A DNA stretch of 64,000 nucleotides from Escherichia coli (GTDB taxonomy: Bacteria; Pseudomonadota; Gammaproteobacteria; Enterobacterales; Enterobacteriaceae): assembly GCF_024700885.2 (NCBI RefSeq), contig NZ_CP117014.1; one strand, 5' to 3'. Positions within the stretch are counted from its first letter, which is position 1, and every line of letters starts with the position of its first letter. Of the stretch, positions 13,420-36,957 are shown one piece after another. A program made the position numbers and the translations under genes. Under the pieces are notes generated by a model, which was not told the origin of the DNA, did not search any database, and saw only the letters and a program-made list of their open reading frames with translations.

Positions 13420-14514
13420 TCACTCAATGATTTTTTCTGCTGTCAGCCAGCTAATTTCTTGCCTGTCTTTCGGCGGTTTTAGCATGTGGGCGTATTCAGC
13501 GACATTCTCCCACGGAATTGTTTTTGCCCACTCAACGATAGCATTGTGATCTGCAGTGAAGAGTGGAATGGTGTGCGATTTCAACCATTCTAATGTCGTG
13601 ACGCCATGTTTTTTGGCGTGGTGCTGCGCATGATGCCGGGCTATCACTCGTAATGGTATTGTCCATTCACTACCATCAGGCATCGAAAAGCGCATTGTCT
13701 TCGGCATATCTGATTCAAGAACAGCCTCCCTAATACCAGGGAACTCACCAAGAATCATACGACGATAGTCATCACTATTTCGCCCGCCATACCTTTCGGC
13801 AAAATGATCAAGATATTCTTGGGTAATAAATGGTGAATCCTCCGCACTCAGCTTAATGGCTTTATATACACCACTCGGATTATCTTCAGCTAAAGCACGT
13901 CCATGATGTGAATCATAAAAAAAGCCTATTTCCTCTGGTGACGGAATTGAAGTGAGCAATATGCGTGAATCACCACTAGTCATGCTTGCCCACACAATGC
14001 TGTATGCCCGATCGCTGATATGTGCGGAATCCACAATAATGAATAAAAGATGGTCGGCGTAGTGACCTGCAATGCTATCTTCATAGTTAAGGCGGAAGTT
14101 ACAAAAGCACATTCCCCAAAATTCATTGAACATCAGACCGCTATCACCGACCTTAAAATACTCAATGATAAAAGGTTGTTTTTTCAGCAATGCCTCCCAA
14201 CATTGCCACACATATGCAACAATTCCTCTTTTGCAAACATTTGATTTTGGATAAACAATTACTGTCCGGGAATCAGGATACATAATCGTATAAAGGGTAC
14301 TAATAACAGCAAGCACTTGCGGTCGTCCGATCCCATACGGAGTGGTGACAGTAGCTTTTGCATTATTGGGCTGTATAGCTTCAACAATTTGTTGTTGCTG
14401 GTGGCTTAAATCAATATCAAACAATTCTTTTGCTGCCAGTACCCAATTGTCTTTATATTTCTCCACCAGCGACAGCCAGCGCGGATCTTTATAAATATTG
14501 CTCTTAGTCGCCAT
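13420..14514 (-). CDS. Terminase large-subunit (PacB) paralog with degenerate Walker A/B motifs
   Basis: Aligns with PacB (19603-21111): DPRW, SHQQQQI, FYDSHH, SPF, EYGGR shared; Walker A GHGTGKS replaced by PYGIGRP, Walker B ILDEAS by IVDSAH; divergent shorter C-terminus. Start set at MATKSNIYKD (ATG 14514). Confidence 0.6.
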   Translation of the reverse strand: MATKSNIYKDPRWLSLVEKYKDNWVLAAKELFDIDLSHQQQQIVEAIQPNNAKATVTTPYGIGRPQVLAVISTLYTIMYPDSRTVIVYPKSNVCKRGIVAYVWQCWEALLKKQPFIIEYFKVGDSGLMFNEFWGMCFCNFRLNYEDSIAGHYADHLLFIIVDSAHISDRAYSIVWASMTSGDSRILLTSIPSPEEIGFFYDSHHGRALAEDNPSGVYKAIKLSAEDSPFITQEYLDHFAERYGGRNSDDYRRMILGEFPGIREAVLESDMPKTMRFSMPDGSEWTIPLRVIARHHAQHHAKKHGVTTLEWLKSHTIPLFTADHNAIVEWAKTIPWENVAEYAHMLKPPKDRQEISWLTAEKIIE

Positions 14515-15271
14515 CTGCCACTTCCTTAACTTCTTCTTTGGCCTGTTCTGCAATCGCCGCACGGCATTTCGCCCTGGCTGTAGCGATTGCTTCAGCTCGC
14601 ACATCGTCTGGAATCGTTGACGTGATATACATATCCAGTTCTTCGGCACGGAATACTGTTTGGTCCAGATATTCGCGTAGCATCCAGGTAAATTCGAAAT
14701 CACACGCGATAATCTCTGCGCTACCTTCTGCACCATTTGGGAAATGAATAAATGCCTGTTTAGCCAAACCGATAACACGACATGCGGTTGCCAAAACAGC
14801 GACAACTAGGTTTACATTTTCACACGCTACGGGCTGGTTAACGCCGGAGATTACTCCATTTAACTGTCGGTTATATGGAAGGTAGTTTGAGATGCGTTCT
14901 ACGCGCCATGTGCCAGTCAGGCTGCCATTTTTAAATATAATTGGTGTAACGGATAGCCCAAGCTCGCGTATAAGTCGTTGCGCTATAGCAGGATCATTAA
15001 ACAGGTCTAATGCTACACATTCGAAAGACTGCGCAAGGGCAAACAGTTCTTCCAGAGAGTAGTCTTTGCCCCTGGCGGTGATGTAACGACGAACGCCGCT
15101 GTCTGCATCACTCCATATAGCTACGCCATGCTCTTCATTCAGCTCTTCATTAAAGCCGAGATACGTCATGATAGTGCGTTCAATCGTGTCAAACGGCAGT
15201 GACATGTCGGCGTTAACAGCCACCAGCAGGCCATTACGCAAGCGGTATTGAATTGTTTTAGTGCTTTCCAT
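14504..15271 (-). CDS. Hypothetical 255-aa protein
   Basis: ORF tightly coupled within the six-gene minus-strand operon. Confidence 0.4.
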   Translation of the reverse strand: MESTKTIQYRLRNGLLVAVNADMSLPFDTIERTIMTYLGFNEELNEEHGVAIWSDADSGVRRYITARGKDYSLEELFALAQSFECVALDLFNDPAIAQRLIRELGLSVTPIIFKNGSLTGTWRVERISNYLPYNRQLNGVISGVNQPVACENVNLVVAVLATACRVIGLAKQAFIHFPNGAEGSAEIIACDFEFTWMLREYLDQTVFRAEELDMYITSTIPDDVRAEAIATARAKCRAAIAEQAKEEVKEVADGD

Positions 15272-15277
15272 GTCAAA

Positions 15278-15718
15278 TCACTCCACAACAAACCAGTCAC
15301 AGGCCAGCAGGTCGCCAACTGAAGGCACCCACGGAACAACTACACCTTGTGCATTTTTTAAGGCGAAATAAGCACCATACGGAACGAGGTCGCCGGGGAA
15401 ATATCCCTTAATGGCTTCCATTCGTGCCGGGTACTGTCCTTCAGGAACCAGCCAGCAGAATTGGTTTTCGCCGTTCCACCCGCGTCGAGCAACTTTCTTG
15501 CCTTCCTTCAGCCACATCAGCGCGTCTGAAAAGTCGGCTGCTTCAAGGTCGATTTCTTCTTGCTGGGTGGTGATGCCACCAGCAGAAATAGTTACGCTCC
15601 CGGTAAGATTAATCATCACGCCGTTGTCATCCGTAATGATGACCGTGGTTCCATTTTTTTTGTGAGCTTTGTATTTGGGACGGAACTTAAAAAGCTCTTT
15701 CGTTGCCATGTTATTCAT
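15278..15718 (-). CDS. DUF2829-like protein (Tad2-like candidate) with N-terminal extension
   Basis: C-terminal half FSDALMWLKEGKKVARRGWNG...VPWVPSVGDLLACDWFVVE fits my recollection of the DUF2829 signature. Confidence 0.45.
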   Translation of the reverse strand: MNNMATKELFKFRPKYKAHKKNGTTVIITDDNGVMINLTGSVTISAGGITTQQEEIDLEAADFSDALMWLKEGKKVARRGWNGENQFCWLVPEGQYPARMEAIKGYFPGDLVPYGAYFALKNAQGVVVPWVPSVGDLLACDWFVVE

Positions 15719-15732
15719 AGTCTTTTCTCTGC

Positions 15733-16227
15733 TTATAACTTTTCGTACTGAAGCGGTGAACGCTTAATTTCAAAGTGGCCTTCCGATGTGCTACCAAAGC
15801 CACCAGCACCACGCTCCGTTTCGTTGAGTTCCTCAACCTCGACTAGTGAGACTTGTTCAACACGCTCAAAAATTCCTTGCATGACAGCCATTCCAGGCTT
15901 GAGACAAACGCCTTCCCCGCCGGGATCAGTAATCAGTTTTGCCATGATTTCGCCGCGATAATCGGAGTCGATAATTCCTACGCAGTTAGCCAGGCGAGTA
16001 TGTTTTTTGCAGCCCAATCCTGATCGCGGATAGAGTTTCAGACACCAGCCGGGCGGGATCTCCATAGCCAGTCCGGTATACACCCACCAGCTTGAGGAAA
16101 TTGCACCATTGCTATCGACGCATGGTTTTATTTCAACAGCCTCAAAATCCATCGCCGCCGATCCGGAGGTGGCATAAGCTGGAAGTTTTGCTGCCGGATG
16201 TAGGCGTTTCACTTTTACGTAAATCAT
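15733..16227 (-). CDS. dut: dUTPase (trimeric dUTP diphosphatase)
   Basis: Motifs SAAMDF, PRSG, GIIDSDYRGEI and RGAGGFGSTS. Confidence 0.75.
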   Translation of the reverse strand: MIYVKVKRLHPAAKLPAYATSGSAAMDFEAVEIKPCVDSNGAISSSWWVYTGLAMEIPPGWCLKLYPRSGLGCKKHTRLANCVGIIDSDYRGEIMAKLITDPGGEGVCLKPGMAVMQGIFERVEQVSLVEVEELNETERGAGGFGSTSEGHFEIKRSPLQYEKL

Positions 16228-17114: not shown

Positions 17115-18143
17115 TTACGAATCCATCAGGCGGCTATTAGCCCCCACAGACACGCCGCCACGGCGAAGATACCGCATAAGTGTTTCCGGTTTCTTCCAGG
17201 TTCCTTCCTGCATGATCTCCACCATAGACACCTGCTTTTCAGCCATATCAATAGCGGCCCCGACGCGTGCACTATGCCCGGTCCACGTCCGGTATCTTCC
17301 TTTGTTTGGCGTAGCATCTCTTTTATTCAGCAACACCCAGGCGTCGCTGAATATTTTCTCCATTGCAGGTGCAGTAAGGGGCGTTGTCGTGATCCTGGCC
17401 TTATTGCTACGGTGTATCGGCGGGAACAGCACTGCGTCAGGATGTTCGCGAAGCCCGGAAACATCCAGCCAGTCATTCAGCACAGCGGTAGTGCGACGGG
17501 AAAGCACCTTATCAAGCCCGGCGGCGGTCGTTATTGTCTTCGTGTGTGAAATATGTAGCGTGACAGTGTCACCTGTTTGATCCAGATCTCCTACACGAAT
17601 ACGCGAGATTTCCGACATACGCATCAGCGTATTGTATGCAACAAAGAGAAAAGCCCGGTTGCGCAGGTCCACCAGCCGTTCTGACCTGGACAACAGGACG
17701 TCGAGCAGTTTCAGATCGTCCCACCGAAGCGGTATAGCCTGGCCTGTTCGTTCGCCTTTTTCAGTTGCCGCTTCGCGCCGGATGCGCCGCATAGCCAGAG
17801 AAACACTTTTATCATCCGAAAGTGGCGGAAGGCCACAATGCGAAAGCAGCATATTCAGCATGGCGTAGTGCTTATCAATGGTGGTCGAAGCCAGATCGGC
17901 ATCATGCAGCTGAAGAAAATACTCGCGGGCCATTTCTGGTGAGATCGGAAACCAGGCAAGCTGGCGAGCGTGACACCAGCGCGCCCATGAATGAAACACC
18001 AACCGGAGGTCGCGCAGAGTATTCGGCGCATAAGCCCCCTGGTCATTCATGAACCGCATAAAGTTTTCTGCAGCCTCCTGGTACTCTTTGCCAATGTTGC
18101 GCAGAAAACCACCGGAGCTGCCAGAGATAATTAATTCACTCAT
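17115..18143 (-). CDS. dre: Cre-family tyrosine recombinase (Dre-like)
   Basis: 342 aa; AVSLAMRRIRRE, AYNTLMRMSEISRIRVGDL, WTGHSARVGAAIDMA parallel recalled Cre (AVSLVMRRIRKE, AYNTLLRIAEIARIRVKDI, WSGHSARVGAARDMA) at roughly 40% identity; adjacent rox-type site. Confidence 0.85.
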   Translation of the reverse strand: MSELIISGSSGGFLRNIGKEYQEAAENFMRFMNDQGAYAPNTLRDLRLVFHSWARWCHARQLAWFPISPEMAREYFLQLHDADLASTTIDKHYAMLNMLLSHCGLPPLSDDKSVSLAMRRIRREAATEKGERTGQAIPLRWDDLKLLDVLLSRSERLVDLRNRAFLFVAYNTLMRMSEISRIRVGDLDQTGDTVTLHISHTKTITTAAGLDKVLSRRTTAVLNDWLDVSGLREHPDAVLFPPIHRSNKARITTTPLTAPAMEKIFSDAWVLLNKRDATPNKGRYRTWTGHSARVGAAIDMAEKQVSMVEIMQEGTWKKPETLMRYLRRGGVSVGANSRLMDS

Positions 18144-18295
18144 GAAACTATTTAACCTCTATATACAGATAACGCTACGCGAAAAATATAAAAATGACAG
18201 GGTAGCTATAAGTTAATTTTCAAGATTCAAGCCTTTGATTCGAGGCGCGTATTTTCAGTGATGTCAATACTGATCATCTACCCATAATTATAGCC

Positions 18296-18327
18296 TAACT
18301 TTAAATAATGCCAATTATTTAAAGTTA
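18296..18327. other. rox-type recombination site (14-bp inverted arms, 4-bp spacer GCCA)
   Basis: TAACTTTAAATAAT-GCCA-ATTATTTAAAGTTA, perfect arms; arm begins ATAACTT-like as in loxP; 150 bp upstream of the recombinase start. Confidence 0.8.
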
Positions 18328-22972: not shown

Positions 22973-23365
22973 CTACCAGCTAGACAAACGAACAACATGT
23001 TTCACTTTTGCGATCCACTGTCCGCGATAACTATTGATTACGGCCTGTGCCAGCTTCAAATTGGCTTCAAAATCAGCCTTACTACCATCAGACTCCACCA
23101 GCATTCCTCCATCTATTTCTGGTAAACATAGATAATCCTGCTCAACCTGCAGCGGCATTGATGGCTCTCTGAATGGGGTTACTTGCTCTGCTTTCCAGCG
23201 AAATCTAACCCTTATCCCCCTGGTGGTCATTACTAGATAGCCTGTTATAGTGCTTTTATGGCCCACATCAGTACGCGTGGCATTGCATGACTCGATCTTA
23301 CAGTTAGCGATAGACCACTCCATATTGGTGGCCTGTTGAGTGCTTAATTTGGTAGTCCCGTACAT
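22973..23365 (-). CDS. Hypothetical 130-aa protein
   Basis: ORF coupled with the upstream 191-aa gene. Confidence 0.3.
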   Translation of the reverse strand: MYGTTKLSTQQATNMEWSIANCKIESCNATRTDVGHKSTITGYLVMTTRGIRVRFRWKAEQVTPFREPSMPLQVEQDYLCLPEIDGGMLVESDGSKADFEANLKLAQAVINSYRGQWIAKVKHVVRLSSW

Positions 23366-23940
23366 CAGAAAGCCTCCCAGTCAGTCGCGATAATATCCAC
23401 ACCAGTTGCAAACCAGTCTGTCTGCGCCTGTAAATCCCCATTCATCATTACCAGGCGAGGCATCACCATCACATCGCACCCTTCCACAATATCGAATGCC
23501 TCTTCCGGCAAGAATTCGAAGAGCTTTTCTTTGCTGCCAATACTGCCACGGAACATCGATATATAGCTCCCTTTGGGCCATGATGTCCGCCGGGCATCAA
23601 GCCCTTTCATCATCCAGTAAAAAGCCGAGGAAAAAGGGATATTCTTTTTGCCAATGATTACATTATTCGCTTCTGTGTATTTCAGGAACTTAACTAACCT
23701 TACCATTGACTCGGATAACGCAACGTATGGCTCATGATTGATTGCTGACACGCTTACACCGTGCAATCCAACGCTTACCACTGTCATATCGCCGCTCTGT
23801 GCGGTTTCGATATTGACGCCTTTGCGAACTAATGAGGCGTAAATTTCCTCTCGCTTTTGGGTCCAGCGTTCACGCTTCCCTATGAAGTCACTCAAAATGA
23901 GATCTTCTTCTGTATATGCGTTATCGTTCGCCATTAACAT
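23365..23940 (-). CDS. Hypothetical 191-aa protein with a possible DUF2829-like C-terminal region
   Basis: FYWMMKGLDARRTSWPKGSYISMF ... TDWFATGVDIIATDWEAF loosely parallels the 15278 ORF pattern. Confidence 0.3.
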   Translation of the reverse strand: MLMANDNAYTEEDLILSDFIGKRERWTQKREEIYASLVRKGVNIETAQSGDMTVVSVGLHGVSVSAINHEPYVALSESMVRLVKFLKYTEANNVIIGKKNIPFSSAFYWMMKGLDARRTSWPKGSYISMFRGSIGSKEKLFEFLPEEAFDIVEGCDVMVMPRLVMMNGDLQAQTDWFATGVDIIATDWEAF

Positions 23941-24392: not shown

Positions 24393-24468
24393 TGGTGGCC
24401 CCTACCGGACTTGAACCGGTGACCGTGCGATTATGAGTCGCCCGCTCTAACCACTGAGCTAAAGGGCC
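24393..24468 (-). tRNA. tRNA with CAT anticodon, most like tRNA-Ile2 (lysidine, reads AUA)
   Basis: GGCCCTTTAGCTCAGTGGTTAGAGCGGGCGACTCATAATCGCACGGTCACCGGTTCAAGTCCGGTAGGGGCCACCA; cloverleaf folds; closely resembles E. coli ileX as recalled. Confidence 0.75.
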
Positions 24469-24897
24469 AGATTACTGTTAATTACGCTTACGCTTTTTGC
24501 CAGAACCGCGTAAGGCTTTTGCCGCTTGCTCTACCCCGTATGCAACCACCAGCAGAAACAATAATGTCCACTCCGGGTTTTTATCGGCAAACGCCCAAAA
24601 ATCCATCACTTGCAGCCACCTTTTAAGACAAAACGCCATTGCTGTTAGGTTGCGGTGCCGGGCGCCTCCCGGTGACGTTAACCAGTTAACAATTAACGCC
24701 GGATCACTTATGGATTCTCGTTACGCCAGTAAAAAGACCACCTTTACTGTTTTAACTGTTCCGCGTGCGCTTAGCCGCATTCACCGCAATGGTAAGAGCA
24801 TTTGGCTGACTGGGCGGCGATGACGCCTGTACGCATTTGGTGATCCGGTTCTGCTTCCGGCATTCGCTTAATTAGCCAAATACCCTTAATGTTGCAC

Positions 24898-24984
24898 TGG
24901 CGGAGAGTAATGGAATCGAACCATCATCGCTTGCGCAATGGGACGGTTTTCAAGACCGCTTGAGCACCATGCTCCCTACTCTCC
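24898..24984 (-). tRNA. tRNA-Ser (anticodon TGA) with long variable arm
   Basis: GGAGAGT...GGTCTTGAAAACC...GGTTCGATTCC...CTCTCCGCCA; 87 nt. Confidence 0.7.
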
Positions 24985-25438
24985 CGTTATTGTGGCGACC
25001 GGTGCTGATCTCCGGCTTGCGGTTATTTCAGACTCTCACGGGCGTTTAATTGCCCCGCCGAACAGCTCTTTTCCGCAATAGCTGCAATGTCTTTCGCGCA
25101 TCAGCCTGCGCATTCACCACAATGTTGAGAACACTGGTTGTCACGCTGCAACGCAACATTTATTCGTAGATTGGGATATGACCCCGTTACGCCAGTGTTC
25201 TCAACGTTGTAGTGCCGGTTACGGTTCCGGCCAGACCTCTTCCTCAACGGGGTGTTCTCCATACGGACTACCGTTTATTGGTCGTTCCTGCGGTTTATGT
25301 TGTGAAGCCAGATGCTTATCTTCTGGTTGCTTCAAAGAGCTGCACTTCATCACAACGGTAAGAGCATTTATGGCTCGCATCGCGGGAAAAAGCCCACGGT
25401 AGAGAGTCGAACTCTACAAATGCTCTTACCTGTTGTGT

Positions 25439-25514
25439 TGGTGCCGGTTAACGGGATCGAACCGCTGACCATTCGCTTACAAAGCGACTGCTCTACCAAC
25501 TGAGCTAAACCGGC
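25439..25514 (-). tRNA. tRNA-Thr (anticodon TGT)
   Basis: GCCGGTTTAGCTCAGTTGGTAGAGCAGTCGCTTTGTAAGCGA...GGTTCGATCCC...AACCGGCACCA. Confidence 0.7.
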
Positions 25515-25518
25515 AATT

Positions 25519-25605
25519 TGGTGGGGAGTGATGGAGTCGAACCACCCGAGTCGCAATGACAGTAGATTTACAGTCTACCCCGCTACCCCTACGGACTAAC
25601 TCCCC
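25519..25605 (-). tRNA. tRNA-Tyr (anticodon GTA) with long variable arm
   Basis: GGGGAGTTAGTCC...AGACTGTAAATCT...GGTTCGACTCC...CTCCCCACCA. Confidence 0.7.
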
Positions 25606-25610
25606 TAAAT

Positions 25611-25687
25611 TGGCGATGGTGGGTGGATTCGAACCACCTACCGAAAGCTTAGAAGGCTGCTGTTCTATCCTACTGAGCTACACCATC
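25611..25687 (-). tRNA. tRNA-Arg (anticodon TCT, reads AGA)
   Basis: GATGGTGTAGCTCAGTAGGATAGAACAGCAGCCTTCTAAGCTTT...GGTTCGAATCC...CACCATCGCCA; anticodon loop CTTCTAA like argU; stem slightly degenerate. Confidence 0.6.
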
Positions 25688-30120: not shown

Positions 30121-33100
30121 TTAGGCCGCATCGGCGATTATTTTACGCAGTTCATCTACCGAGTAACGCGTAGATACCATCCATGCAGGACGGTCAAAGT
30201 TCACATCAGCAACCGGGTTTGCTTCAAAATTCCAGAAACGTCCGCCAATCTTCTTAATCGCGTCTTTGGCGTTCCGTATTGTCGAGGAACCTGGTTGGTC
30301 GGCAATGAGATAAACCGCGCCAACGTCCTCGCTGACGCTCCACCAGCGCCCGCGAACACGCGCCTTAGCGCGAATCGGCTTATCATTAACCACAATGATA
30401 TAGTCATCATTCGCCGCTTCATCAGCTCTGGCTTCAGCCACTGCCGCCTGCTCTTCTCTTTTGCTTTCAGCCTGCTCAAGCCTTTCCGCGATCTCTGATT
30501 CAGTGGCCCCGCCGTTTTTCAGCGATACATAGTCCTGCCACGTTGCCGATTTGAGCGTATCCGGCAACTCATTCACATAGTCGCCGTCTTTCAACTCACG
30601 GGCGCGGCGGGTAGCCATTTCTACCAGGCGATTAACAGAAACAGCATCAGCAAAATCGTCCTTACTAATGTGTTTTTCATCAAATGCATTGATGACAGCC
30701 CCCACCTTAATCCACTGTGCTGCCGGTGATTCCAGGGGGTTATCAGCCTGAACAATGGCGAGTTTCGCTCCATCTACCCCATTATTCGCCAGCTGTTCCA
30801 ATGCCGCCCATCCATCTGCATCACTGAGTGATTTATATTGCTCAAACAATGCATCGCGCCAGGCCACCAGCGCAGAACGTGTTTTTTCGATCTTCGCCTT
30901 AATTTTCGCGATCTTGACCTGATTAAACATCCGTTCAATATCATCGATATTGCTAAAGGCTTTCATCCTGCCCTGGAATAAACGGTATGCCAGCACGGTC
31001 CTCCAGAATGATTCCAGACCTTCTCCGGACGGTTTGCGGAACAAGCTAAGAATATCTTCAGAAGTGACTTTATTAAGCGAACGACCTGACAGACCACGCC
31101 CAGCCATCCAGTTTTCGAACTCATGGGCAACATCATCCATCGTTGCCTGTGCGCCCCATGCCTGCATTCCCTGGGTGTAATCATACCCATACAATGCCTG
31201 GAGGAATCCCTCGCCGTCCACGATATTCAGCGGGTTATCACTGGCTTGTATTTTTGCCACTTCACGCTTCAGCGCCTCGTCGTTGCCATCAGGATATATC
31301 CATCGCTCAGGTGCTATATCCGATGCTCGCCCGATTTTTTGGCCTATCACGCCATCATAGGCCGATGACAGCGCGATCTGACCATCATCTGTGCGATATG
31401 CCCAGTATTTAATAGCTGACCCACCGCCCCATGCATTACCAGGTTTACCAGCAATAACATTCATTACCCCATTGCGAATAGCATCATAGAACTGATCGCG
31501 AGTAAGTATTGTTGATAGCTGGTGGCACTGAACACCACGCGCAGCCGTTGCGCGCGATTCAGCTACCCCCTCTTCAAAAGTTACCGCTTCAATCACAGAG
31601 TCAAACGGCAATGTAACGATTGACCCCGGTGCTCGAGCGTAACGACTTGCTCTATCCAGCCAGGCGATACGGCAGAGGTATTGTGCTTTTTCACCGTCAA
31701 TTTTTTCCACCCGGACAATCGCTGTTGTTTCGCGATCATCAATGACTGCACGGTAATAACTACCTTTATGCAACAGGATATTCTTGTCAGTGCGCATATA
31801 TTCCTGTGGGTTCTGAATAACATCGATACTGATATCCAGCACACCAGACTTAATAGCGCGCTCCACCTCACCACGAGAGCGTTTCATTATGGTATCCGCG
31901 TCTTTTGCCCTGGTGATCGCAAACCGCAGCACCCGCGCACGTTTTCTGTAGCTACTCAACTGCTCAAGCGCGTATTTTTGCCCATTCCTGTTCGTACCCG
32001 CTTTTATCAGGTCGTCAAGATTGCGCTGGTAATACTCTATCTGTTCCATCGCGCTTTTCAGTTCTGTCTCCATCATGCCGATATCTTTTCCGGCGGCGTT
32101 TGCCGCTTTCAGGTAGATATCGAGAGCATTGTTGGCCTCGCGCTGTGCTTTCAGTTTCAGACGTTCTTCACGCTCTTGCGCCTGGCGAGCCATGATTGCG
32201 CGGCGTTCTTCCGGGTTTGCCGCCAGCATAATGGCGCGTTCATCAGCATCATCCGCATCACCATTGGCGATCTCTGACATGTCGGATGTCATCACCATCT
32301 TGATCCAGTCTTTCTTACGTTTCAGCGTATCCAGACGGAAGTCGTCGAATGTGCCTTTGCCACAATAGTAGTGAACATTGACCTTTTCTTGCGGTGAACC
32401 TACGCGCGCACCGCGCCCATTTCGTTGGTCGATACTGGCTGGTGTCCAGGGTAGTGTCAGGTGGTGGATATCGGTTGTCCCGATGTGCAGGTTAATACCT
32501 ACTTCAGCCTTCTTGTTACAGATTATGATGCGCGTGCGACCTTCGTTATAGTCGGCGGCAATACCTTCCATGCCCTCAAGGCCAGCATCATTTTTAGCGG
32601 AGAGATAATCCTCATATTGGGCAAGTTTGCTGTAGTAGGTTTCCCATGCCCCTTCTTTGTATTCACCGTTTTTGTTTGGAGTAGGTTCGGTCGGCTTATT
32701 CACCTTCTTCAGCTTGATGCCACCAGCCTGGCTAACTGTCGTCGCATTGATAATGCCAATCTCCTGCTCCGGCATTTGCAGTGCACTGGCGATAATACGG
32801 CGCAGCTTCTGGTGCTGGGCTTTTTCATCAATAAAGACGATCTGCTTACCGTTCTTCAGACCTTCACGAAGATTTTCGATCAGCGCGGCATACTTCGGCG
32901 GGATGGGGTGCGACACCTGCTGCATATCAATGCCGGCAGCCGCAATGGCCTTCAGTATTTCAGCTTCCAGTTCAATGCTGGCACGTATTTCAACATGCGT
33001 CGGATGTTCACTAAAAGCGGTCTTCACTACCTTGCTGGTACGCGTACTGACCAGCCCGCCAGCGCCGTCTTCCTCGGCCTCATCAACATCATCTGCCACT

Positions 33101-36100
33101 TTACCGCCAGCTACTTTTGGCAAGGCATCAGCAATAGCTTTTACCTGGTCTGCAAGCTCAACGGGGAACTGGAATGTAATCGCACTGGCATACAGATCCG
33201 GGTCTATAGCAACCTTATCCATGTCACGGATGATGGAGAAGATGAAATCATCCGGTTTGTCGTTAGTGATATGCCCGTTTTCATCGACTGTCAGCTCATC
33301 ATTGCGACTTAACTCCTGAGCACGCTTACGAAGCTCTTCATAAGCAGTCTCCTGCTCCCCTGTCATCGGGATCTGCAAGGTGTTCTCGATGATGTCGGGA
33401 ATTTTAACCGTCGCTCCGACATCTGCAGCAGTCTTCAGAGTGGTCCAACGATGGAAAATACCACGCAGGCCGTCAAGGTTCTGGAAGCCCACCAGCCCCT
33501 GCTTCTCTTCCACTTCCCCGGAAATTTTCTGGACCTGAACTGTGGCTGTTTTGCCAAACACACGAACGAAATCATCAGGCGTAATGATGCCCATGCGCAT
33601 CCACTCTTCCTGCGGAATGACAGTAGACAGCATGTTGAAGGCATCAATCGGACTGTTCACCAGCGGTGTTGCCGTCAGCATGACTACACCACGCCCGTTG
33701 TTGCGTTTCATCATGTACGCAGCTTTTACAGCCATGTCGCGGGCCATCTTGGATACTGCCGGGTTAGGCAAATATGCCAGTTGTCCCGCTTCACGCCCGG
33801 CATTAAAGGAGTTGCGGTAGTTATGCCCCTCGTCGGCAATCACGCTATCGAAGTTCATATCCTCAAAGTACGGGATATTCTGCTTCTTCGTTGTACCGGT
33901 ATTCGCGGCCTGATCCTTAATCTTGTTCTTCTTCTGCGCATCACGGTGTTTACCGGACGCCAGGTCAAGACGCCCCATTTCCACAGCATTAAAGACAGCT
34001 TGCTGTGAGTTCTCCTCGATGGTTTTTTCTCGTAGCGGGATAGACGCGAATTGTTCTTTTGTCATGATGACCGTTCGCCAATTTGACGACGGGATCATGT
34101 TCATGCGCTGAACGATAACGGCGCTGGCGGACTCTTTCACAACATTTCTGGTAAGAGGCTGCCCGTTACTGTCGAGGCGTGGTTCGCCATTTTCATCAAG
34201 CACCGGCGCGGTCAGAATATTTCCGCTGTCATCACGAACTTCATCCAAACCGATAAACATCATATTGGCGAAGGCATCAGCACTGTAGAAACTCTGTGCC
34301 TCGTGATACCAGTTCTGATAAACCGCCTTCGGAACAACAATACACGTGCGTTTAGTGCGACCTGTTTCGAAGTTATACGCCTCAAGCGCAAGCGCGGTCG
34401 TGGTTTTACCCAGCCCGGTACCAAATCCCATGATGCCGCGCCCATCTTCTGACAAGCTACGAACTTCTTCATTCTGATAAGTCAGAGGAATGCGCTTTCC
34501 ACTAATCCCTTCCAGGCCAAGCGGTGCGTTAGAGTGCGTGAACGGAATGAAGCCATTGAATGCGTCGTTATAGTCACGGGCTATCTGATCCGCCTGCGGG
34601 TGGGTGCGTAACCAGTCGTTAAAGCTAACTTCCAGTTGAGCAATTTTATCCAAGTACTCGTTAGCGTTCTGCCCACGCGGTTTAACACCGTTCAGGTAGT
34701 TTTCTAACTGGTTCAGGAAGCCGTCTTTATTGTTGGCCTTCTTGAACTCATTCCCGTTTTTGCCGTTTACGGTTCGTAGTTGATAGCCGGTAAATACCCC
34801 GTCCTTACCTTCGTAATCGTCCGGAGATACCAGAATGCCATCGACGACCTTCAGATCAGGTTCAGTGTACTTAAACTCGTCATAGCCCTGCTCTGCCAGG
34901 AACTCTTTTATCAAGCGGCGATCCAGCCAGCGGGCATTCAGATTAACGGTGACTTTATTTAGTGGCGTGAAAATGCGTTTCTCTTCGATTTTCGCCAACT
35001 GACGCTCAAAGTTCGCTTTCTGCTCACCTGTTGACGCATCACGCCAGCCCACCAGCAGTGCTGTTTTGGTTGCAACATCGCCGCTGGTGGCGCGGTCCAT
35101 CGGCAGCAGACAGCCATACCCATCAATAGCGATATCATCAAATTTCGCCAGGTATTCAAGGACCGCGTCGTCGTCCTCTGGCAGTTCACCAGCAAACGCC
35201 TCACGAAAGTCGCCCAGCGTTATAGGATTAAGGGCTACATCACTAAAAAGATGTGCTATCACTTGTTCAGGACGCGTAAAGTCAATACCGGCAGCACCAT
35301 CCGTTACATCAAGTCGCCCTGCCAGAAGGTCAGAAGTGGAACCATCCTGTTTCACATTGCCAGTGAACGTCATCCAGTTTTTAGCGCCAGCTTCAGCAAG
35401 CCCATTCAGCTTAATCGCGTGCGGTGGTCCATACTTCGCAACTTCTGCTGCCGCCAGGCGGGATGCATCTGCCAGTTTGTCATCAACGTTCACCCCCAGG
35501 TTACGCAAATCAAGTGCCTTGTTGATCAACTGACCTATCAGTGCACCGCGCATAACGCGCTCCCTGTCTTTTTCTCGCTGCTTGCCAGCAAAGCGAATCA
35601 TTGCTGCCACTTCATCACTGACAACCGATGGATAGTCGGACGCGATCGCCGATATCTGGTCCCATGACAAAGCCAGAATCCCGTTTGTTGACTGGAACGC
35701 GATCTGCAGATCGCCAAACGTCGAAACACCATATCGACTTACATCAAGCGCGGAGGATTTGGTTGTCGTGTCCTTAACCCATTTCAGACCATCAAACTCA
35801 TGCCAGATACCGCCTACAAGGCGTTTATCGCCCACTTTCGCGCCCTGCCATGCCTGAGTAGTTACGCCGAGCAAATCCCAATTGATGCGACTATCAAAGC
35901 GACGAGATAGCGCGGTTTTCATCGACTCATTGGATACACGACCGTCTTTTTTCACCACCAGGGTATTGCGGAAGCTGGTACGTTCCATGTCGCCGTAAAC
36001 AAATCGCTTCCCTTCGGTTGTAAACCATTTCCCTTTGAGGAAGGTATCCCAAAGGACGTTTGCCGATTTGAGCGTCGAATCATCCGTATCGGGGATCATC

Positions 36101-36957
36101 ACCAGGAAGGCTTCCGGGTGTTTACGCAATACCCATACGTCCACCACGGTATCTGTACCTGATTCACTGAACGTACCGGAAGGCATACGATGCGCGCCCA
36201 AAAATTCCGCTTTACGGCTGACTTTATCGCGCAATTTTTTGTATTTCGTACCATCAGTCATGCCATTCGGCACCACCAATACGATAAGCCCACCAGGTTT
36301 AACCTTGTCGATCGTGCGCAGCACAAAGTAATTGCCAACGTTCTTCTCGTTTGCATATGCCGGATCAAGCCCTGCAACGCCGGAACGGCCTTCGCCAAAC
36401 GGTACGTTACCAACAGCGTGGTCATACATTGCGTCTTTCGCCGCCAGCGCCTCAAACGCCCCGATATTCACATCGTCTTCCGGGTGCAAAAGCTGGTTTA
36501 TTCGACCGGAAATCGGAGACAGCTCGGCGCTGGTCATTATCATTCCCTGCCGTTTTGTCTCCTGGAAAATACCCGTGCCAGCTGATGGTTCCAGTACGTG
36601 ACCGCCATCAATACCGTAGTCAGCAAACAGCTCCCATATACCTTCAGCCATAAACTGTGGCGTGTAGTATTCGTATTGGCTGCCCTCACCATCTGTCAGG
36701 CCGCCTTCACCGGTATACCCAGCAAGAATCTGACGTTGTTCGTCAGTTAATTTCGCCCCATCGAAGCCGGGCGGAAGGGAATTAAGAAGATTTACTGCGG
36801 CATTGTTTGCTGCCCGGCGTGTTTTCTGAATACTGACGCCATCGGCTTTCCTGACGCCAAAGGTCGCAACAGCACGTAATTTATGCAACCGACTAACAAT
36901 TTCAATCAGTTCGCCTAAGCTGGAGGCTTCACTGATTGAATGAAGTAGTTTGTCCAA
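30121..36957 (-). CDS. darB: DarB-like virion anti-restriction protein (N6-adenine methyltransferase plus helicase)
   Basis: 2278 aa (P1 DarB about 2255 aa as recalled); methyltransferase motifs LEPSAGTGIF and NVPFG; helicase Walker A GFGTGLGKTT and VIADEGHNYRN. Confidence 0.75.
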   Translation of the reverse strand: MDKLLHSISEASSLGELIEIVSRLHKLRAVATFGVRKADGVSIQKTRRAANNAAVNLLNSLPPGFDGAKLTDEQRQILAGYTGEGGLTDGEGSQYEYYTPQFMAEGIWELFADYGIDGGHVLEPSAGTGIFQETKRQGMIMTSAELSPISGRINQLLHPEDDVNIGAFEALAAKDAMYDHAVGNVPFGEGRSGVAGLDPAYANEKNVGNYFVLRTIDKVKPGGLIVLVVPNGMTDGTKYKKLRDKVSRKAEFLGAHRMPSGTFSESGTDTVVDVWVLRKHPEAFLVMIPDTDDSTLKSANVLWDTFLKGKWFTTEGKRFVYGDMERTSFRNTLVVKKDGRVSNESMKTALSRRFDSRINWDLLGVTTQAWQGAKVGDKRLVGGIWHEFDGLKWVKDTTTKSSALDVSRYGVSTFGDLQIAFQSTNGILALSWDQISAIASDYPSVVSDEVAAMIRFAGKQREKDRERVMRGALIGQLINKALDLRNLGVNVDDKLADASRLAAAEVAKYGPPHAIKLNGLAEAGAKNWMTFTGNVKQDGSTSDLLAGRLDVTDGAAGIDFTRPEQVIAHLFSDVALNPITLGDFREAFAGELPEDDDAVLEYLAKFDDIAIDGYGCLLPMDRATSGDVATKTALLVGWRDASTGEQKANFERQLAKIEEKRIFTPLNKVTVNLNARWLDRRLIKEFLAEQGYDEFKYTEPDLKVVDGILVSPDDYEGKDGVFTGYQLRTVNGKNGNEFKKANNKDGFLNQLENYLNGVKPRGQNANEYLDKIAQLEVSFNDWLRTHPQADQIARDYNDAFNGFIPFTHSNAPLGLEGISGKRIPLTYQNEEVRSLSEDGRGIMGFGTGLGKTTTALALEAYNFETGRTKRTCIVVPKAVYQNWYHEAQSFYSADAFANMMFIGLDEVRDDSGNILTAPVLDENGEPRLDSNGQPLTRNVVKESASAVIVQRMNMIPSSNWRTVIMTKEQFASIPLREKTIEENSQQAVFNAVEMGRLDLASGKHRDAQKKNKIKDQAANTGTTKKQNIPYFEDMNFDSVIADEGHNYRNSFNAGREAGQLAYLPNPAVSKMARDMAVKAAYMMKRNNGRGVVMLTATPLVNSPIDAFNMLSTVIPQEEWMRMGIITPDDFVRVFGKTATVQVQKISGEVEEKQGLVGFQNLDGLRGIFHRWTTLKTAADVGATVKIPDIIENTLQIPMTGEQETAYEELRKRAQELSRNDELTVDENGHITNDKPDDFIFSIIRDMDKVAIDPDLYASAITFQFPVELADQVKAIADALPKVAGGKVADDVDEAEEDGAGGLVSTRTSKVVKTAFSEHPTHVEIRASIELEAEILKAIAAAGIDMQQVSHPIPPKYAALIENLREGLKNGKQIVFIDEKAQHQKLRRIIASALQMPEQEIGIINATTVSQAGGIKLKKVNKPTEPTPNKNGEYKEGAWETYYSKLAQYEDYLSAKNDAGLEGMEGIAADYNEGRTRIIICNKKAEVGINLHIGTTDIHHLTLPWTPASIDQRNGRGARVGSPQEKVNVHYYCGKGTFDDFRLDTLKRKKDWIKMVMTSDMSEIANGDADDADERAIMLAANPEERRAIMARQAQEREERLKLKAQREANNALDIYLKAANAAGKDIGMMETELKSAMEQIEYYQRNLDDLIKAGTNRNGQKYALEQLSSYRKRARVLRFAITRAKDADTIMKRSRGEVERAIKSGVLDISIDVIQNPQEYMRTDKNILLHKGSYYRAVIDDRETTAIVRVEKIDGEKAQYLCRIAWLDRASRYARAPGSIVTLPFDSVIEAVTFEEGVAESRATAARGVQCHQLSTILTRDQFYDAIRNGVMNVIAGKPGNAWGGGSAIKYWAYRTDDGQIALSSAYDGVIGQKIGRASDIAPERWIYPDGNDEALKREVAKIQASDNPLNIVDGEGFLQALYGYDYTQGMQAWGAQATMDDVAHEFENWMAGRGLSGRSLNKVTSEDILSLFRKPSGEGLESFWRTVLAYRLFQGRMKAFSNIDDIERMFNQVKIAKIKAKIEKTRSALVAWRDALFEQYKSLSDADGWAALEQLANNGVDGAKLAIVQADNPLESPAAQWIKVGAVINAFDEKHISKDDFADAVSVNRLVEMATRRARELKDGDYVNELPDTLKSATWQDYVSLKNGGATESEIAERLEQAESKREEQAAVAEARADEAANDDYIIVVNDKPIRAKARVRGRWWSVSEDVGAVYLIADQPGSSTIRNAKDAIKKIGGRFWNFEANPVADVNFDRPAWMVSTRYSVDELRKIIADAA

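Follow-up and report, generated by a model that had tools for sequence, protein, structure and literature searches.

A Tad2-family protein with an N-terminal deletion scar on a D6-like phage-plasmid of Escherichia coli, best read as a signal sponge

On the minus strand of the stretch of Escherichia coli DNA analysed here (64,000 nucleotides, hereafter the window), a complete coding sequence of the ORF list (15278-15718; 146 aa, ATG to stop, stop codon at 15278-15280) combines a C-terminal part that resembles DUF2829 proteins with an N-terminal part of no evident family, and thereby raises the question of what such a protein may do for the element that encodes it. This element is a D6-like phage-plasmid of the P1 family, the region being 97.5% identical to Escherichia phage D6 (a P1 relative with a Dre/rox recombination system), and it holds an exact match to the rox site (18296-18327). 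D6-like phage-plasmids are frequently encountered in clinical E. coli, Shigella and Salmonella.

The 441-nt gene encodes exactly the protein of RefSeq WP_001061875.1 (its name there is "DUF2829 domain-containing protein") and shares 100% DNA identity with a gene of E. coli plasmid p702_18_3 (NZ_CP074704.1, 95 kb, non-mobilizable) that bears the same protein accession; the orthologue of phage D6 (orf114, 146 aa, 98.6% identical to the window protein) goes by the same name in RefSeq. Moreover, in a 2025 preprint survey that relied on tools for detecting anti-defence genes, 93% of D6-like phage-plasmids had Tad2. Since the core identification is already known from this RefSeq annotation and survey, the Tad2/DUF2829 identity of the gene is public both at annotation level and in the literature, and the details that are new are incremental: the allele arose by an in-frame deletion, the domain that it lost is Dec-like, and the locus is polymorphic and has undergone further local deletions.

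Tad2 domains of the window

The Pfam search assigned residues 62-145 (15284-15535, minus strand) to PF11195 (model positions 2-73 of 73, E=9.5e-23), a family formerly named DUF2829 and at present called "Thoeris anti-defense 2-like domain". A previous sequence-only reading of this DNA had recognised a DUF2829 pattern in the C-terminal part of the protein and had proposed an HMM search against Pfam as its check; both motifs that it quoted are in place (ALMWLKEGKKVARRGW at residues 66-81 and VPWVPSVGDLLACDW at residues 128-142), far beyond chance, and the search is clearly positive over nearly the whole model. In line with this assignment, a phmmer search of the 146-aa protein against all PDB chains returned only Tad2 proteins, with ModTad2 (9EIB, E=8e-21, 46% identity) and Tad2 8V3E (E=1.1e-20) as the best matches, followed by weaker ones to HgmTad2/AcrIIA7 (8KBI, E=3.7e-11; 9KZR, E=1.2e-10), SPO1 Tad2 (8SME, E=1.4e-9) and SptTad2 (8WJD, E=7.8e-9). 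The single-sequence AF2 model of the protein itself was unusable (pLDDT 37), and the fold was therefore read from the alignment-based model of a 225-aa relative (98% identical over residues 21-146), in which the mean pLDDT is 87.5 and that of the Tad2 domain 90-97. Taken together, the family HMM, the fold (on the close relative), the pocket residues (see below) and the nature of a small mobile-element protein characterise the 146-aa product, as judged from its sequence, as a member of the Tad2 family.

The six-frame HMM scan of the window revealed two Tad2 domains (in 15278-15718 and in 23365-23940) and no others. The second, which the sequence-only reading had listed as a weaker look-alike, belongs to a genuine if divergent DUF2829 protein (191 aa, encoded at 23365-23940 on the minus strand), whose Tad2-like domain covers residues 103-190 (23371-23634; PF11195 E=4.4e-9) and leaves the N-terminal 100 aa outside. 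This protein has a full-length match to PHROG 7362, carries SWP in place of GWN in the aligned pocket loop, and is represented among phage records by D6 only (10 homologous clusters were found in all). Searched against PDB sequences it returned only chance-level matches to malate dehydrogenase, being too divergent for such a comparison.

The deletion allele and its full-length relatives

The N-terminal 60 aa had been set down in the sequence-only reading as extra and unassigned; extra they are, in that neither Pfam nor NCBIfam holds a family that matches them, but they do not form a separate additional domain and are instead the leftover of a larger region after an in-frame deletion. (Pfam matches of the linker described below to EF-P OB and KOW, with E=0.075 to 1, were taken as noise.) The close homologues of the protein, encoded on contigs of approximately 90 kb, mostly measure 216-233 aa and match it at 98-99% identity in residues 21-146. 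Compared with these, the window protein consists of long-form residues 1-20 (MNNMATKELFKFLPKYKAHK) fused straight to ...KNGTTVIITDDNG...: residues 1-20 (MNNMATKELFKFRPKYKAHK; 15659-15718, minus strand), situated upstream of the deletion in the alignments to the 225- and 233-aa alleles and in the translation, comprise a conserved leader and the start of an OB-fold, and residues 21-57 (KNGTTVIITDDNGVMINLTGSVTISAGGITTQQEEID; 15548-15658, minus strand) correspond to the beta-rich linker found between OB-fold and Tad2 in the full-length alleles. This linker is modelled as beta-strands (pLDDT ~62) in the AF2 prediction for the 225-aa relative, and in the phmmer alignment to 6E3C it is weakly aligned to the start of the Dec stalk (INLTGSVTISAG vs ITLTGAVTGSAS), a stalk that is trimeric.

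At the nucleotide level, the 441-nt gene equals the first 62 nt plus the last 381 nt of a 678-nt allele, with a 2-nt overlap, which amounts to an in-frame deletion of 237 bp. At the junction (15654-15661, minus strand; compared with L004:6001-6678 and L002:6001-6702), two A5 runs that overlap by two nucleotides (AA) have merged into an A8 run. A junction-spanning query (one aligned piece denoting the deletion allele, two pieces 237 bp apart denoting the long form) assigned the deletion allele to at least 19 of the listed 60 plasmids, whose hosts are E. coli, Shigella dysenteriae and Salmonella enterica, and the long form to 41. Since 19 of these 60 plasmids carry it, the deletion is a real inherited allele and no assembly artefact.

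The deleted part comprises 79 residues, which together with the retained leader make up one domain. In full-length alleles (e.g. P0001, P0010 and J46_0048 of SJ46) the order is a Dec-related OB-fold, the beta-rich linker and then Tad2. The N-terminal domain had no family match when 37 homologues were searched against Pfam. Its relation to Dec of phage L (PDB 6E3C, a capsid decoration protein) emerged from a phmmer search with the N-terminal 138 aa (E=0.0057) and from a profile built on 42 homologues (E=2.5e-5), in which the motif KPEVGGYL...YGELLYMSKTAFEANYT is aligned; in the AF2 model of the 225-aa relative the N-domain reaches pLDDT 90-97. The full-length alleles share the OB-fold motif KH.P..GGY.V.YEDGY.S.SP..AFE.GY, and an HMM of the domain finds none in any frame of the 64-kb window. 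In a search of 1.84 billion representative proteins the OB-fold was present in 1,777 clusters (E<=1e-3); among the 147 representatives analysed, 36 were stand-alone (<=115 aa) and 4 tandem, and a further 8 clusters had a C-terminal Tad2. The OB-fold often occurs as a stand-alone phage protein of approximately 90 aa. In the Methods of Hadary et al. (10.1101/2025.08.24.671296), Tad2 proteins that also contained "PF21825 or PDB 6E3C" were removed from the analysis, and since 6E3C-containing Tad2 proteins were among those excluded, the class of Dec-Tad2 fusions had been seen before and left out of that screen.

The locus is polymorphic beyond the presence or absence of the OB-fold. The allele alignment (A2) shows at least 3 different insertion/pocket cassettes, one of which turns GWNG into EWKG, and other deletion derivatives occur at the same place, namely P0028, a dut-Tad2 fusion ORF, and P0078 (117 aa), which must be inactive because half of its Tad2 domain is removed. 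Extending the argument to the lost domain, we consider it conceivable, and still rather doubtful, that the OB-fold is itself a counter-defence module, acting either as a second signal-binding sponge or as an anchor that holds the sponge at the capsid or at some target in the host. A sponge role would accord with the published pattern in which Tad2 is frequently fused to another sponge (Acb4, Sequestin/PF21825). As to the capsid, the proteomics paper on virions of P1 itself reports P1 to be without a decoration protein, which gives no support for a capsid-decoration role of the full-length alleles. Were the OB-fold such a module, P1/D6 phage-plasmids would have, between dut and isaA, a hotspot of counter-defence that is modular and evolves fast, with OB-fold variants and at least 3 Tad2 pocket cassettes being shuffled there, and the window allele would represent a natural domain-deletion experiment.

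An allele born of a deletion at a short A-run invites the explanation that it is a decaying remnant, i.e. that the deletion crippled a two-domain protein whose 146-aa product is non-functional or misfolded and merely not yet lost. The half-destroyed Tad2 domain of P0078 and the retention of the full-length gene in most of the listed plasmids would fit such a course of events; what speaks against it is that the Tad2 domain of the window protein is complete from model position 2 to 73, that D6 and at least 19 plasmids belonging to three genera preserve the reading frame, and that bare Tad2 domains of 87-89 aa are fully active without any N-terminal partner (10.1101/2025.08.24.671296). Furthermore, the short alleles of the window and of D6 are separated by 9 synonymous and 2 non-synonymous changes (R13L and E72D; dN/dS ~0.06), a single comparison based on 11 differences, the majority of which crowd at the 3' end, where a recombination tract may account for them. 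Small as these numbers are, the substitution pattern is that expected for a gene still under selection, and we regard decay as an unlikely explanation of the allele.

Predicted pocket, ligands and neighbouring genes

The ligand pocket of the family is known from solved structures. In SPO1 Tad2 (Yirmiya et al.) W25 and W73 make van der Waals contacts, N26 and D79 polar ones, S76 coordinates a water, and T78, I63 and T65 contact the adenine; the equivalents in HgmTad2 (Li et al.) are W21/N22/G23, W87, S90, T92 and D93, and the W21A/N22A and S90A/T92A/D93A mutants lose binding. In HMMER alignments of the window protein to these two proteins (8SME and 8KBI), the core pocket positions are all conserved (W81, N82, G83, W130, S133 and D136). 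They lie in two segments: W81-N82-G83 (15470-15478, minus strand) in the beta1-beta2 loop of the predicted pocket, equivalent to W25/N26 of SPO1 Tad2 and W21/N22/G23 of HgmTad2, and W130-V-P-S133-V-G135-D136 (15311-15331, minus strand), aligned with W73, S76, T78 and D79 of SPO1 Tad2. The adenine side of the window protein is made of L120, N122, Q124, V128 and G135, with T78 changed to G, T65 to N, D67 to Q and H71 to V with respect to SPO1 Tad2, and these residues are identical to those of an active homologue, Tad2_68. Because the adenine-side residues differ from those of SPO1 Tad2, we infer the ligand specificity from Tad2_68 only.

Tad2_68 was one of the 84 proteins of the sponge screen by Hadary et al. 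(bioRxiv 10.1101/2025.08.24.671296), the scores of which are given in Table S2. It scored y/y/y against type II Thoeris, was positive against type I Thoeris in the plaque-assay column (the 96-well transformation having failed) and was negative against type IV Thoeris, two CBASS and two Pycsar systems. The controls of the same table are positive for type I only (SPO1 Tad2) and for type II and Pycsar (MoTad2), and since these control rows match published behaviour, our reading of the columns is confirmed. The screen also contained several Tad2 homologues that were inactive against every system tested, so that membership in the family is no guarantee of function. With regard to the N-terminal tail, stand-alone Tad2 domains (87-89 aa) suffice for full activity, and the 151-aa HgmTad2 control, with an N-terminal extension of ~47 residues, was still active, so that a tail as such is not disqualifying; the 57-residue tail of the window protein, with its beta-rich segment that is maybe prone to self-association, could nonetheless disturb the assembly of a tetramer.

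Taken together, these observations make a Tad2-type signal sponge the best-supported reading of 15278-15718. More specifically, the protein is probably a homotetrameric sponge for ADPR-derived signals made by TIR proteins, encoded on a D6-like phage-plasmid. The C-terminal 85-90 residues would adopt the Tad2 fold and assemble into a homotetramer, with two pockets at the protomer interfaces, lined by W81/N82/G83 together with L120, N122, Q124, V128, W130, S133, G135 and D136. These pockets would sequester ADP-ribose-derived signals of bacterial TIR proteins, the likeliest ligands being 3'cADPR (1''-3' gcADPR) from type I and/or His-ADPR from type II Thoeris systems, so that the Thoeris effectors (ThsA) would stay unactivated and infection, establishment or induction of the phage-plasmid could proceed in Enterobacteriaceae that carry Thoeris. 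The N-terminal 57 residues, as the remnant of the 237-bp deletion, would contribute no functional domain of their own. The present analysis establishes domain membership, the deletion, the conserved pocket, how far the allele has spread and how well it is conserved, and also the fold, the latter on the relative with 98% identity in residues 21-146; the anti-Thoeris activity of the 68%-identical homologue is published; the tetramer, the ligand, the timing of expression and the phenotype in vivo we infer.

[quoted passage not shown] The family offers precedents for each, as cGG and cGAMP are bound by HgmTad2 and SptTad2, cUMP and cCMP by MoTad2 (the closest solved structure, to which the beta2-beta5 region of the window protein is similar in length) and N7-cADPR by Tad2_71. 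The residues with which HgmTad2 holds cyclic dinucleotides are, however, unconserved in the window protein (V91 stands opposite R31, N85 is aligned to a gap, and the insertion is ~17 residues shorter), and Tad2_68, whose insertion is almost the same in sequence, scored negative against type IV Thoeris and against the two systems each of CBASS and Pycsar, which renders this possibility improbable and leaves the Thoeris signals of types I and II as the preferred ligands.

The gene lies in a string that runs dre-orf117-orf116-dut-tad2-isaA (ORF list, D6 annotation) and begins with dre, encoding the tyrosine recombinase Dre (17115-18143, minus strand). Directly upstream of the Tad2 gene, across a 14-nt gap, is the dUTP diphosphatase gene dut (15733-16227, minus strand; NCBIfam NF001862, 121.5 bits at a cut-off of 103; D6 annotation), and directly downstream, across a 6-nt gap, an isaA-like gene of PHROG 2326 (14504-15271, minus strand; noted in D6 as 'similar to P1 gene isaA'). 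The same order is kept in L002 and L004, where the long alleles occupy the slot of the short one. The dut and Tad2 genes are probably co-transcribed. Upstream of dre and overlapping rox, the promoter scan found the only strong sigma-70-like match nearby (TTGGCA-16 nt-TATAAT, 11/12, a consensus match only; 18287-18314, minus strand), which is a candidate promoter of the dre-to-isaA string. A search for the P1 C1 operator as a sign of repressor control over the string, the consensus of which operator we take to be ATTGCTCTAATAAATTT, gave 0 matches with up to 3 mismatches; the consensus is possibly wrong, or C1 of D6 prefers another sequence.

This neighbourhood bears on the view that the protein is a small toxin, or an accessory of the adjacent dUTPase in nucleotide metabolism, and plays no part in immune evasion. 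A relative of the second DUF2829 protein of the window (55% identical) is named 'MW1434 family type I TA system toxin' by NCBI, DUF2829 genes adjoin dUTPase genes in the unrelated Bacillus phages JL and Shanette, and P0028 joins dut and Tad2 in one frame. That fusion is nevertheless explained by another local deletion, the NCBIfam scan of both DUF2829 proteins and six neighbouring genes matched the dUTPase only (neither DUF2829 protein at E<=0.01), a biochemical link between Tad2 and dUTP is not known, and all characterised members of the family are signal sponges, which makes a toxin or dUTPase factor very improbable. To our knowledge, E. coli, Salmonella and Shigella carry CRISPR-Cas of type I and not of type II, so that an anti-CRISPR of the AcrIIA7 type, directed against type II CRISPR-Cas9, would be without a target in the known hosts. 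The similarity to AcrIIA7/HgmTad2 reported above, with PDB entries named as type II CRISPR-Cas inhibitor, thus scarcely lends credence to such a role, the more so as Yirmiya et al. state that Cas9 binding was never shown for the DUF2829 anti-CRISPR and argue that the family is anti-Thoeris. On this evidence, both the MW1434-family toxin and the AcrIIA7 anti-CRISPR readings of the window gene were rejected.

Were the predicted sponge active, D6-like phage-plasmids would carry a ready-made inhibitor of TIR/Thoeris signalling, which would help to explain their establishment across many host lineages, and the protein would provide a Gram-negative, temperate example for a family studied mostly via Bacillus phages and metagenomic genes. 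What the present analysis adds is modest: the N-terminus is a deletion scar, the usual allele is a Dec-like OB-fold followed by Tad2, and the locus is polymorphic, with several pocket variants.

Comparison with characterised Tad2 proteins

The nearest characterised relative is Tad2_68 (IMGVR_UViG_3300014659_000001, 87 aa; 10.1101/2025.08.24.671296), which is 68% identical over window residues 61-142, has the same type of insertion (VP.G.YPARMEA.KG) and is identical in the pocket residues (W, N, G, L, N, Q, V, W, S, G and D). It is a bare domain from a metagenomic virus, whereas the window protein has a 57-residue N-terminal tail. ModTad2/MoTad2, from a Myroides odoratus prophage (9EIB, 8V3E), differs from the window protein in several residues neighbouring the pocket (...LKTVDNDIATWTPSVSD vs ...LKNAQGVVVPWVPSVGD); MoTad2 does not inhibit type I Thoeris and also binds cUMP and cCMP, and neither trait can be taken for granted in the window protein.

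The founding member, SPO1 Tad2 (gp34.65; 8SME/8SMF/8SMG), has the same fold, is likewise a small phage-encoded protein, and sequesters 1''-3' gcADPR; its W25, N26, W73, S76 and D79 are conserved in the window protein, but the overall similarity is lower (E=1.4e-9), T78, T65, D67 and H71 are replaced, and the host of SPO1 is Gram-positive. HgmTad2/AcrIIA7 (8KBI, 9KZR) shares with the window protein the combination of Tad2 and an N-terminal extension (151-158 aa) and is active against type I Thoeris. It differs by a beta2-beta5 insertion of 35-41 residues (with R31, S47, F70 and N85) that forms a second pocket for cyclic dinucleotides; the window protein lacks both this insertion and its key residues, and the second pocket that SptTad2 has in common with HgmTad2 is not conserved in it. 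Judged by sequence, the window protein is not a member of the HgmTad2-type cyclic-dinucleotide subclass.

Closest in genomic position are the full-length alleles of P1/D6 phage-plasmids, which occupy the same slot between dut and isaA and begin with the same first 20 residues, but have the Dec-like OB-fold that is gone from the window protein. The published sponge-sponge fusions Acb4-Tad2 and Tad2-Sequestin/PF21825 (bioRxiv 10.1101/2025.07.12.664507) present Tad2 as a module fused to small phage domains. Homologues of the window protein include PF21825 fusions, while the window protein itself is without a second recognisable domain, and the partner in its full-length relatives is a Dec-like OB-fold, as opposed to the known sponges (Acb4, Sequestin) of the published fusions. 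In comparison to the characterised Tad2 proteins, the one described here is thus set apart by its residence on a temperate phage-plasmid of Enterobacteriaceae, by its N-terminal deletion scar and by its origin in a fusion class that the published screen excluded.

Alleles and deletion derivatives of the Tad2 gene

Among the alleles of the Tad2 gene (alignment A2; 15278-15718 (-) of the window versus the long alleles L002:6001-6702 and L004:6001-6678 of related loci), we recognised at least three cassette types in the region comprising the Tad2 insertion and the ligand pocket: the one carried by the window allele (VPEGQYPARMEAIKGYFPGD), the one present in the 233-aa form (VPDKQGASRLTPIKHAANGELEINFDSP), and that of the 216-aa form, in which the pocket loop GWNG is replaced by EWKG and ...VPWVPSVGD by ...SVWLPSVDD. 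Since both the flanking EIDLEAADFSDALMWLK and the C-terminus are nearly invariant across these types (alignment A2), the sequence pattern suggests that cassettes are shuffled at this gene, and that the types possibly differ in ligand specificity.

Additional deletion derivatives were found at the same locus (window 15278-16227). In the first of them (P0028, 241 aa), the dUTPase (up to ...ERGAGG) is fused in frame with the linker and Tad2 domain (ITTQQEEIDL...). In the second (P0078, 117 aa), the OB-fold runs straight into the Tad2 domain at its middle, so that the pocket loop is destroyed; the third (P0005, 158 aa) is a shorter form that starts inside the OB-fold. The locus appears to be deletion-prone.

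The Dec-like OB-fold family

The Dec-like OB-fold belongs to a large family (1,777 clusters at E<=1e-3) that is without a Pfam entry and is typified by the motif LP.Y.CHK.V.A.KI ... KH.P..GGY.V.YEDGY.S.SPAKAFE.GY (proteins P0121-P0267 from outside the window, alignment A4). The domain often stands alone, as a protein of about 90 aa, and is sometimes found in tandem and sometimes fused to Tad2 or other domains. The only role known within this family is capsid binding by Dec of phage L.

Other features of the window

Beyond the isaA-like gene, whose end it overlaps, lies a 364-aa ORF (13420-14805 (-), probable start near 14514) that is found in some D6-like plasmids (locus L004, NZ_CP074704.1). 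The stretch resembling phage D6 stops near position 14531, short of this ORF. No NCBIfam family matched it, and its orthologue in L004 had no match in precomputed Pfam. An exact 32-bp rox site is located at 18296-18327 (+) (TAACTTTAAATAATGCCAATTATTTAAAGTTA) and is overlapped by a sigma-70-like promoter match (18287-18314 (-), 11/12) directed into dre. Further along, five tRNA genes (Met-CAT, Ser-TGA, Thr-TGT, Tyr-GTA and Arg-TCT) are clustered at 24393-25687 (-), the first of which falls within a segment common to P1/P7-like phages that carries an annotated tRNA gene there. The very large ORF at 30121-36957 (-) (2,278 aa) may, as a guess from its size and context, be the counterpart of the anti-restriction protein of DarB type that P1-like phages carry.

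DUF2829 genes and their neighbourhoods

The second DUF2829 protein (23365-23940 (-)) has SWP as its pocket loop and an N-terminal stretch of 100 aa without an assigned family. Its gene is paired back to back with a 130-aa ORF (22973-23365 (-), PHROG 7004), and lpa and pacA lie downstream of the two. The search for this protein yielded only 10 protein clusters, with D6 as the sole match among phage records, and a 55%-identical relative is labelled by NCBI as 'MW1434 family type I TA system toxin'. As for the first DUF2829 gene, it adjoins a dUTPase gene (15733-16227 (-)), and the same adjacency is encountered in the unrelated Bacillus phages JL (KC595512.2) and Shanette (KC595513.2) (matches H36-H39), which may be either a coincidence or the mark of a common early-gene neighbourhood.
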